A stretch of DNA of 34,799 bases from NCBI GenBank assembly GCA_963813135.1, contig CAWEXY010000016.1, forward strand, positions 1-34,799, in the 5' to 3' direction. Origin of the DNA: an uncultured Verrucomicrobiae bacterium (GTDB lineage Bacteria > Chlamydiota > Chlamydiia > Chlamydiales > Rhabdochlamydiaceae). This document shows positions 20,975-23,200 of the stretch, one piece after another. Every line of letters begins with the position of its first letter. Positions within the stretch are counted from its first letter, which is position 1. The notes under the pieces are model-generated. The model saw only the letters and a list, made by a program, of their open reading frames with translations, searched no databases and was not told where the DNA came from. Made by a program: the position numbers and the translations under genes.

Positions 20975-23029
20975 ATGTTATATCATGCTAAACAAATTAT
21001 GTATGATTATCTTTTGTTAAACAAAGACTACACCATTAACAATGCTCTCGCGTGGGGAAACTGTTTAAACCATGCCCATCAAGCCTGGACAAATCCCTAC
21101 CTTAAGAAGCGCCTTTTCCATGCCATCGTAGCCCTTGTCGAGTCCATACCGATTATTGGCCAAATAGCTTCCCTGTTTGAGATGACCGCCGCCCGGTTAT
21201 TTAAACCCTACGACTCATTGTCCGATCTAACAAGCAGGAATATTCGACAGATTGAAGGACAGGAAAAACCTTTTCCTCATCAAGCTAGAATAATAAAAGC
21301 TCCTGCCCCATTTCCTGAAAAATTTGATATCACTTTTCCGTCAGAAATTAAAGATTTGCCCGAAGCCCTTTTCTTCTTCCACCGCTATATCGATAGCCAA
21401 TACAGCGCTCTTCCATGGCCTGAAAAAATGCAAAAGATTCTTATTTTCACGCACCTAAGCGGCGGGAAAGGTGATCTTGCTGCAGCAGGGAAAGTAATTG
21501 CCTTGATGCAAAGGATTTGCCCAGATTTAATTTTTGACTGGGCTGTGATAGCTGCCTGCTATGATCCTACTTATCAACCTCATTTATTTTTAAACGGTGC
21601 TGACCATTCAAAAGTGCATGTCCGATGCAGCCCTACTGTATATGGAGGATCGAAACCTAAAGATGAATCCCCAGCGGACATGGTTGTAACGGGCCCTTTT
21701 TCCTTGTGCGATCATTCTTGTGAAGAAATAGAAAAAACCATTAACCGCCCAATCAAGGGCCCGGTCTTTAGCTTTCAAGAAAATGCCCAGTTTTTATGGC
21801 AGCTTAATTCGCATGAAACGCAGGAGATAATTTCCGATGGGAGAAAGGGCCATCGATCAAATGAGGAAATTTATCAAAAATTACATCCAATAATTTTCCC
21901 TAGCACAGCAACCAGAGAAAGATCAACCCTCCCCATGGGAATCCAGCCGGGATCGGGTGTTTTTTTAGATACGGCTCGAATAAAAGCCCCCTTGTCGCGT
22001 GGATATTGCTGTCCCTCTTATCTTTTACAAATTCAAGATGCACAGCTGCGTGACGACATTTTAATAGCGATGAATGTCTTCGATCAAGGAACACAGCCTG
22101 ACTATGATCAACATTCATTCAACTCTGGCTATGCTCATGCATCCGCTACCTGGGCAAGATTTATAGATTGCGTGGCAATGCATGAAAAAAAGAAGCATGT
22201 CGTGATCGTGCTCAACCAAGAAGGAGCCGTCCATCAACTTTCAACACCAACATTTCAAAGTGAAATTTTCACACAGAAACGCCTCGCTTTTCTCAAGCAA
22301 AAAGGATTTGGAGACATCCTATTGAAAGGCGAGAAACCTCAGACTTTTGCTGTGCAAAAAGCTGCAAATCCCCAACAAGAGCGCCGTCTGATCGTGATCA
22401 TCCGCAAATTTTTTTCACCCAACGACATGAAATGCATGCAATTGGCATCAGAGCGGCTCCTTGCCACGGGTGATAATAGTGCTGCAGAAGCTTGGTGCTC
22501 TAGATGTAAACTTTATTTATACGAAGATGTTAATAATGCTGGATGCAAATGGCGGTTCCTTCAACAACAAGTAGACTTAGCGAAAACGATTTCCCCAAAT
22601 TTGAGTCGATTACTTACTCTATTTGGAGGAGGTCTGCGAATTAATATACCTCCTCATGAGCCGCGCAGCGAAGATCAAATGGCCGAAATAGAAGAGCTCT
22701 TGAATGACCCGAACATAAGCGATGCAACGCTCCAATTTTGTGATGAAATTGTATCTAATTACTCCTTTGATACAGTCCTAGAAGGAGCCCTTAAACGAAC
22801 AGCTTGGCATAATTATATTCCAGAACTTGCCCAAATTGAAGCTTCGGCTCTCGATGAAAACTTCCGCACGGGCTTGATGGAATATCTCGACAATCCCAAT
22901 ACAGCTAAAAAGGAATTTTGTGTCTCGCAGATTCCCGCTATGGGTGTTAACATAAAAAAAGCCATTGAGCAGCATTTTGAAAAACTCCCTGCTGAAGCAG
23001 GGAAATTCTCCGAAGATTTAAGGAATTGA
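20975..23029 (+). CDS. Large hypothetical protein, possible GT-B glycosyltransferase-like effector; start may be ATG 21001
   Basis: 684-aa AT-rich ORF with motifs ILIFTHLSGGKGD and LLATGDNSAAEA. The last codons and the stop come from mini-element copy C. Confidence 0.8.
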   Translation: MLYHAKQIMYDYLLLNKDYTINNALAWGNCLNHAHQAWTNPYLKKRLFHAIVALVESIPIIGQIASLFEMTAARLFKPYDSLSDLTSRNIRQIEGQEKPFPHQARIIKAPAPFPEKFDITFPSEIKDLPEALFFFHRYIDSQYSALPWPEKMQKILIFTHLSGGKGDLAAAGKVIALMQRICPDLIFDWAVIAACYDPTYQPHLFLNGADHSKVHVRCSPTVYGGSKPKDESPADMVVTGPFSLCDHSCEEIEKTINRPIKGPVFSFQENAQFLWQLNSHETQEIISDGRKGHRSNEEIYQKLHPIIFPSTATRERSTLPMGIQPGSGVFLDTARIKAPLSRGYCCPSYLLQIQDAQLRDDILIAMNVFDQGTQPDYDQHSFNSGYAHASATWARFIDCVAMHEKKKHVVIVLNQEGAVHQLSTPTFQSEIFTQKRLAFLKQKGFGDILLKGEKPQTFAVQKAANPQQERRLIVIIRKFFSPNDMKCMQLASERLLATGDNSAAEAWCSRCKLYLYEDVNNAGCKWRFLQQQVDLAKTISPNLSRLLTLFGGGLRINIPPHEPRSEDQMAEIEELLNDPNISDATLQFCDEIVSNYSFDTVLEGALKRTAWHNYIPELAQIEASALDENFRTGLMEYLDNPNTAKKEFCVSQIPAMGVNIKKAIEQHFEKLPAEAGKFSEDLRN

Positions 23030-23200
23030 CCAATCATGTGCGTGCCTAATCTATCCATGAACGATTGCCATGCCGCAATCCCATCCCTTTAGGGGTGGGT
23101 TAGGCAGGCCTGTAGTTGGTCTATTCCTTAAATCCTCGAAGAATCCCTTCCATTTATGGGAGGGTTCTTCAATGGGGGTAGGATTGGGGCAAGGCGATCA
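22977..23200 (-). mobile_element. Miniature IS200/IS605-type element, copy C (older and diverged), interrupted by copy B
   Basis: Minus-strand right end GAAT-TTCCCTGC-TTCA-GCAGGGAG-TTTT-TCAA. The remainder of its left end (tgggggtaggattggggcaaggcgatca) resumes at 23173. Confidence 0.75.
23062..23172 (+). mobile_element. Miniature IS200/IS605-type element, copy B (intact, 111 bp)
   Basis: TGAA|cgattgccatgccg-CAAT-CCCATCCC-TTTA-GGGGTGGG...GAAT-CCCTTCCA-TTTA-TGGGAGGG-TTCT-TCAA|, with no target duplication. Confidence 0.85.

Follow-up and report, generated by a model that had tools for sequence, protein, structure and literature searches.

How a 111-nt segment without a gene came to lie, in the opposite orientation, within a decayed relative of itself, what would have moved it, and what directed it to that position are the questions raised by this locus. 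The segment (copy B) and the interrupted relative (copy C) are located in the window, the whole 34,799-nt stretch of DNA that was analyzed, which also contains copy A of the same family.

Copy B and Its Insertion into Copy C

The features of the window that bear on these questions are as follows.

3350–3450, minus strand: copy A, 101 nt, of the second subfamily, with TGAA at 3454–3451 and CAAT at +16
20975–23029, plus strand: open reading frame of 684 residues (DUF562), a host gene whose last 17 codons and stop lie inside copy C
22977–23061, minus strand: right part of copy C, from GAAT at 23008–23005 to TCAA at 22980–22977 (nhmmer E value of 1.4e-13)
23058–23061, plus strand: target tetramer TGAA (C_L), outside copy B; on the other strand, the loop of the left hairpin of copy C
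23062–23172, plus strand: copy B, 111 nt and gene-less, with the plus strand as its top (active) strand
23076–23079, plus strand: left guide CAAT (G_L, +15 to +18), found at the same place in IScs605 and at loci L092, L132, L203, and L204
23080–23099, plus strand: left hairpin, a DNA fold with an 8-bp stem that includes one G-T pair, a TTTA loop, and an outer stem that extends it
23141–23172, plus strand: right end of copy B, 32 nt, consisting of guide GAAT, an 8-bp stem, a TTTA loop, TTCT, and the cleavage site TCAA (C_R)
23173–23200, minus strand: left part of copy C, with guide CAAT at 23186–23183, the 5′ arm of the left hairpin, and a decayed left flank (AAAA)

The first-pass annotation had described copy B as an element of 111 nt with no open reading frame, two hairpins with TTTA loops, and an end that runs from GAAT to TCAA, and this layout was confirmed in the sequence. 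The same is true of its observations that TGAA precedes both copy B (guide at +15) and copy A (guide at +16) and that the right end of copy C has the 32-nt layout of copy B, from GAAT to TCAA, with a different stem. The right hairpin of copy A was found to lack 10 nt, a point absent from that annotation.

When copy B was excised in silico, copy C aligned end to end with a relative on contig C10 and the TTCA loop was kept; this loop is also present in the uninterrupted relatives of copy C on C10 and C19. The interruption of copy C by copy B in the opposite orientation, with no duplication, is borne out by this alignment. Copy C as a whole is 82% identical to the uninterrupted C10 copy, and its two halves are collinear with that copy. 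Its decay is apparent from the AAAA at its left flank, a T as its first base, and a mismatched left stem with two extra C residues. A 4-nt deletion at the left junction would explain the AAAA flank as well as three substitutions would.

No empty allele of the site occupied by copy B was seen in genome G001 or in four public runs. A joint that skips copy B was absent from the contigs of the four runs, where the low-share contigs give no evidence either way. The whole 3-kb stretch around copy B, from the DUF562 gene through a toxin–antitoxin pair, is absent from the matching place in G001. This pair, a Gp49-like toxin with an HTH_37 antitoxin, is found at 23254–23978, directly after the nest. 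DUF562 has a chlamydial range, from which the host is probably an environmental chlamydia, and no paralog of the DUF562 open reading frame was found in this genome.

It had also been suggested that elements of this family can insert into the TGAA hairpin loops of their own relatives. The insertion of copy B into such a loop is real, but a preference for these loops is not needed. With 50 of the 17,434 TGAA sites (2,877 outside long ORFs) falling within family copies, 0.07–0.40 nested events are expected by chance and one is observed; the nesting of copy B in copy C is no more than chance and in itself matters little. One further nested case was found among 104 sites in all hosts. Hairpin-structured targets were not preferred either, with a mean of −3.55 kcal/mol compared with −4.50 kcal/mol for random TGAA sites (p 0.10). 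At L102:2201 what remains of a right end carries an insertion in its loop, and at L053:1501 two left ends are positioned face to face.

Boundaries, Target Tetramer, and Guides

A combination of BLAST and profile searches identified 24 full-length copies in this genome, with 13 of the B type, 8 of the A type, and 3 of the C type. Ten of the B-type copies, including copy B, are identical, and the other three are 98–99% identical. Copy B belongs to the latest burst, and the family has been recently active in this genome. Four fragments consist of a right end only (C30:13110–13157, C21:151622–151664, C11:115033–115069, and C6:9680–9722), and three of these are identical to copy B; in the C11 fragment, TGAA is followed directly by the 32-nt right end. 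The C6:9680 fragment was considered as a remnant of tnpB, and this was rejected after no profile match was found. No match in the window reached the Rfam gathering score.

The prediction that copies elsewhere in the genome are bounded by TGAA and TCAA with unrelated flanks was found to hold for each of the 23 aligned copies (copy C was left out). The BLAST query began after TGAA, the background frequency of TGAA is 0.0048 per position, and two of the boundaries (C6:22272 and C19:30839) were adjusted manually, each by a single base, in line with the alignment. Target-site duplications and terminal inverted repeats, which had been named as evidence against the proposal, are absent; a duplication of 3–12 nt was found in 0 of 23 copies, and a 2-nt match was found in 3 of 23. 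The base at −5 is T in 14 copies, A in 7, and G in 2, while the base at +1 is A in 11, T in 9, C in 3, and G in none (p 0.0005 relative to the TGAA sites of the genome). Across all hosts, G is found at +1 in 7 of 98 sites.

An IS3-like transposase gene (C6:21966–22382) has been struck by a B-type copy and, 195 nt away, by an A-type copy; removal of both restores a single open frame of 257 codons. For the C19 copy, a paralog of the left flank retains TTGAA. In plasmid pRAS3.1, which is empty at the IScs605 site, TTGAA is also retained and is joined directly to the right flank. Because the empty plasmid site and the C19 paralog both keep it, TGAA is a retained target that lies outside of the element. 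A family-wide query returned no junction-spanning match to the C6 stretch, no orthologue of the C21 gene in five genomes was usable as an empty site, and the comparison of one G001 copy with its G000 site was ambiguous.

The pairing of the two hairpins was evaluated with 20 hand-picked relatives. In the left hairpin, 99.4% of the cells are paired, and in the right hairpin, six of the eight pairs have changed on both sides; for the two stems together, 97.8% of the cells are paired and both partners have changed in 7 of the 16 pairs. None of 500 shuffles was as high, in a control that takes no account of relatedness, and the slid controls gave 41–61%. At both ends, the fold of the top strand is more stable than that of the bottom strand.

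In IS608, the guide/target pairs are GAAT/TCAA at the right and AAAG/TTAC at the left, and the first two bases of the guide pair in a crossed manner, as described in PMC5934647 and PMC3201880. The guides of copies A and B fit this scheme, with CAAT/TGAA at the left and GAAT/TCAA at the right. The fourth guide base also takes part in the pairing, and this fits both of the published IS608 pairs. Beside tnpA genes, where each pair was read by eye from a single copy, the left pairs were found to be AAAA/TTAT at 17 distinct loci, CAAA/TGAT at 2, CAAT/TGAA at 8, and CATT/TGAA at 1. Guide and target did not match at two tnpA loci (L182 and L194), and at others the left hairpin was not found.

Among the relatives, 8 of 98 sites end in TTAA rather than TCAA; wobble pairing (G-T) with GAAT would account for this, as would a guide shifted to AATT. 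A TTAA-ended subfamily is made up of the G392 copies at L036, L047, L054, and L059, together with L084 and L085. The rule that each guide pairs with its cleavage site, which the first-pass annotation applied to the left guide to predict the target, is upheld in copies A and B and by the covariation among the tnpA elements; it is not followed by the TTAA-ended relatives, by the flank of copy C, or by the 17 relatives with a GAGT guide that are considered below.

Autonomous Relatives, Proposed Movement, and Spread

Two metagenome loci place a B-type left end beside a transposase. The element at L132 is complete; its left end is preceded by TGAA and has CAAT at +15 and the same hairpin, the genes are a divergent IS200/IS605 tnpA (NF033573, 142 bits) and tnpB (NF040570, 241 bits), and the right end runs from GAAG to TCAC with the same 32-nt layout. 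The L132 TnpA matches the TnpA of IS608 only at an E value of 6e-20 and is 74% identical to the TnpA of an element on IncQ2 plasmids. That element, carried on pRAS3-3759, is named IScs605 in PMC9405359. Both IScs605 proteins have identical entries whose names derive from Chlamydia trachomatis records, and the TnpB cluster includes entries from C. suis. The left end of IScs605 has TTGAA, CAAT at +14, and the same hairpin; from the guide onward, the left end of copy B is identical to IScs605 at 24 of 33 bases and to L092 at 28 of 33. The same left end is also found beside tnpA in G176 and G245, two genomes of the window's own order.

The published target of IScs605 is TTCAA, from Dugan 2007 as cited in PMC5381551 (where the element is misprinted as IScs105), and TTCAA is the reverse complement of TTGAA. 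Since IScs605 inserts at TTGAA, published as TTCAA, a specificity for TGAA was already known; the target of copy B is not new but is shared with IScs605, and the family is a PATE of a known kind.

All seven of the autonomous right ends that were read beside tnpA are GAAG/TCAC, compared with GAAT/TCAA in the family of copy B, and tblastn, locus, and pattern searches returned no autonomous element with a GAAT/TCAA right end. Copy B was therefore rejected as a plain deletion derivative of IScs605. The expectation that tnpA or tnpB genes would be found between the same ends is satisfied for the left end (L132, L092, IScs605, G176, and G245) and, for the right end, extends to the layout only. At L099:1525–2237 (minus strand), and also at L086, L146, and L156, a TGAA/CAAT left end and a GAAG/TCAC right end enclose an ORF of 50–60 residues and a truncated tnpB; this arrangement is a deletion intermediate of the IScs605 clade.

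Searches of this assembly, which is 82% complete, with the Pfam models Y1_Tnp and Cas12f1-like_TNB, tblastn, and protein queries gave neither TnpA nor TnpB, and our own profiles of 13 TnpA and 12 TnpB proteins found nothing in the six frames of this genome. That the left end is shared with elements encoding tnpA agrees with the suggestion, based on the lack of a transposase in the window, that the element moves in trans. TnpA was likewise not found in G001, G212, or G392. Of 400 genomes of the phylum, 107 hold TnpA-like matches. The element with the TnpA of G032 (L021) was considered as the cognate one and rejected because its left end is TTAT/AAAA. The G-rich strand holds the top strand in 17 of 28 cases (p 0.34) and in 40 of 82. 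Neither count amounts to a significant bias of the top strand toward the lagging-strand template, and the skew of these contigs is weak and patchy.

We conclude with high confidence that copy B is a nonautonomous miniature of the IS200/IS605 group (a PATE) with an IScs605-type left end and a TGAA target, which would be moved by a Y1 HUH TnpA in trans. This assignment, which agrees with the first-pass annotation in that the family is of the PATE type, recently mobile, and mobilized in trans, is supported by the boundaries of all 23 aligned copies, the same left end beside tnpA and tnpB, the covariation of guides with targets and of the hairpins, and the empty site. Against it stand the helper searches that gave nothing, the failure to find an autonomous element with a GAAT/TCAA right end, the lack of a strand bias, the GAGT-guide and TTAA-ended relatives, and the absence of an empty allele for the site of copy B. 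In the proposed mechanism, TnpA would bind both hairpins on the single-stranded top strand, with CAAT pairing with TGAA at the left and GAAT with TCAA at the right. The strand would be peeled out as a circle, the donor would be resealed with TGAA kept, and the circle would insert 3′ of another TGAA with no duplication. By chance, copy B would have landed on a TGAA formed by a hairpin loop in a copy that was older, decayed, and in the opposite orientation. Because the guides lie within the element, any TnpA that binds the hairpins could deliver it to TGAA.

Copy B resembles IScs605 in its TTGAA, the following 13–14 nt, CAAT, the 8-bp hairpin with a TTTA loop, the outer stem, the lack of a duplication, and the 32-nt right-end layout. 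It differs in that IScs605 is 2006 nt long with tnpA and tnpB, while copy B has 111 nt and no gene, and in the right guide and site (GAAG/TCAC vs GAAT/TCAA). At 111 nt, copy B is probably too short to encode an omega-RNA. The likeness to IS608 of Helicobacter pylori includes the right guide GAAT with site TCAA and a left guide at the hairpin foot (+16 to +19), according to PMC5934647 and PMC3201880. However, the left pair of IS608 is AAAG/TTAC and C is preferred after the cut; in the family of copy B, the left pair is CAAT/TGAA and the cut is followed by A or T. The PATEs of Haloquadratum walsbyi and the PATE-like elements of Geobacillus stearothermophilus are also gene-less, with near-terminal palindromes, a conserved external target, no duplication, homogeneous subfamilies, and mobility where tnpA is broken or absent, as reported in PMC3119063 and PMC10055086. 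Small elements are described as inserting into PATE palindromes in PMC3119063. The family of copy B differs from these in its host group and target, and in that it inserts into itself.

Of 401 genomes of the phylum, 11 contain the left-end pattern, and these represent three families; G212 has 35 matches, and the reversed control gave none. Metagenome contigs contributed 94 stretches, and viral contigs gave 0 matches. Five named contigs that hold close copies were labeled as Verrucomicrobia by their submitter. These patterns contain TGAA and CAAT and measure spread rather than targeting. Plasmids queried with copy B returned only five weak hairpin matches, in haloarchaea. In G046 (L003, L008, L011, and L022), single hairpins carry the core of the left stem of copy B, and this genome has a Y1 domain in a frame of 324 residues.

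The family was not described among the papers listed on the TAM of TnpB, chlamydial IS200 miniatures, and IScs605, although TAM or ISfinder tables or supplements may already include it or other TGAA elements. It adds a widespread and recently active miniature transposon family to hosts, probably environmental chlamydiae, from which none was described in the literature found. The family is now connected with IScs605, an element previously known from plasmids and from the Tet island of C. suis. Its natural insertion sites, somewhat more than a hundred, offer material for examining the guide/target rule, together with the bases at −5 and +1.

Alternative Readings and the GAGT Allele

RAYTs (TnpA-REP) are Y1 relatives, and a REP/BIME-type repeat moved by such an enzyme would likewise present two short, mostly intergenic hairpins, in a genome that holds another abundant palindrome family. 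We consider this reading very improbable. The ends are fixed at TGAA and TCAA, the two hairpins differ and are in direct order, and the left end is shared with IS200/IS605 tnpA genes that score 133–142 bits with NF033573 and fall below the cutoff of the REP transposase model. The incomplete genome gave no match to Y1_Tnp, and the hairpin feet are CAAT and GAAT rather than REPtron tags of the GTAG/CGTC type, as named in the title of PMC3733652. Even less probable is a MITE with short inverted repeats (TTGAA...TTCAA) that depends on a DDE transposase, or a reading of the other strand with TTGA as the target. TTGAA and TTCAA are reverse complements and T predominates at −5 (14 of 23), but −5 varies, there is no duplication, the bottom strand has no matching guides, and TGAA is kept both at the empty IScs605 site and in the C19 paralog. 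An assembly error that joined two repeat copies, as might arise in an incomplete draft with 10 identical copies of the B type, is just as improbable for the nest. A 297-nt contig of public run X4 (depth of about 3, from one run that could share its source with the assembly) spans 22973–23269 with zero differences or gaps, so the nest is probably not misassembled, and both halves of copy C are collinear with the C10 copy.

The GAGT allele raises a different problem for an IS200/IS605 miniature with a TGAA target. GAGT replaces CAAT at the guide position in 15 copies of G212 (L256–L269 and L273), in one of G217 (L255), and in one of G422 (L254). The rule predicts a TCAA-type site for this guide, contrary to the TGAA that precedes 17 of 17 such copies, the loci having been fetched with patterns that lack TGAA. 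In G212, GAGT makes the outer stem perfect, with the 3′ arm complementary to the bases that precede GT (TAGA/TCTA); in G217 and G422 these bases are TTGA, unlike G212. It is conceivable, though doubtful, that the target is not set by the inner-hairpin guide alone and that GAGT copies also move to TGAA, whether because a G:G mismatch is tolerated, because another guide lies at the foot of the outer stem, or because the protein reads the site. In G212, CACT at +3 could serve as such a guide in agreement with the rule, but this idea fails in G217 and G422 and was rejected. In addition, the GAGT copies are scattered over a tree of 40 full copies (8 changes, with 126 of 500 shuffles as low), and two of them are identical on this tree to CAAT copies elsewhere when the guide block is left out; most of the CAAT copies compared lie on metagenome contigs with flanks in common with G212. 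Each full GAGT copy differs from every other, and the right end is missing from 5 of 15 GAGT copies compared with 2 of 32 others (Fisher p 0.026, with rough end-calling). Conversion of resident copies after insertion is the likelier reading, and it is favored because excision depends on a compatible left guide, as reported in PMC10055086.

A broader proposal, to which we assign a low probability, is that the GAGT allele of three genomes in two families either inserts at TGAA despite its guide or has been repeatedly written into resident copies as a silencing switch that perfects the hairpin. With a right end from another IS605 subgroup and no helper in four assemblies, the element would then be a self-contained, cross-mobilized cassette and a test of the reach of the guide rule. 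If the GAGT copies are mobile, they would be a natural exception to the rule of programmable single-strand insertion, which would matter for retargeting.

The window has further repeats. A second palindromic family, REP-like and more abundant, is found at 27409–27469 and 32196–32269, with 103 genome-wide matches to one 14-nt motif; no Y1 transposase for it was found in the assembly. A 53-nt direct repeat with a 24-bp hairpin, at 11750–11859 and 12579–12631, flanks a HicB-like gene (11898–12284), and an RHS-repeat protein of 1726 residues is encoded at 6115–11295.
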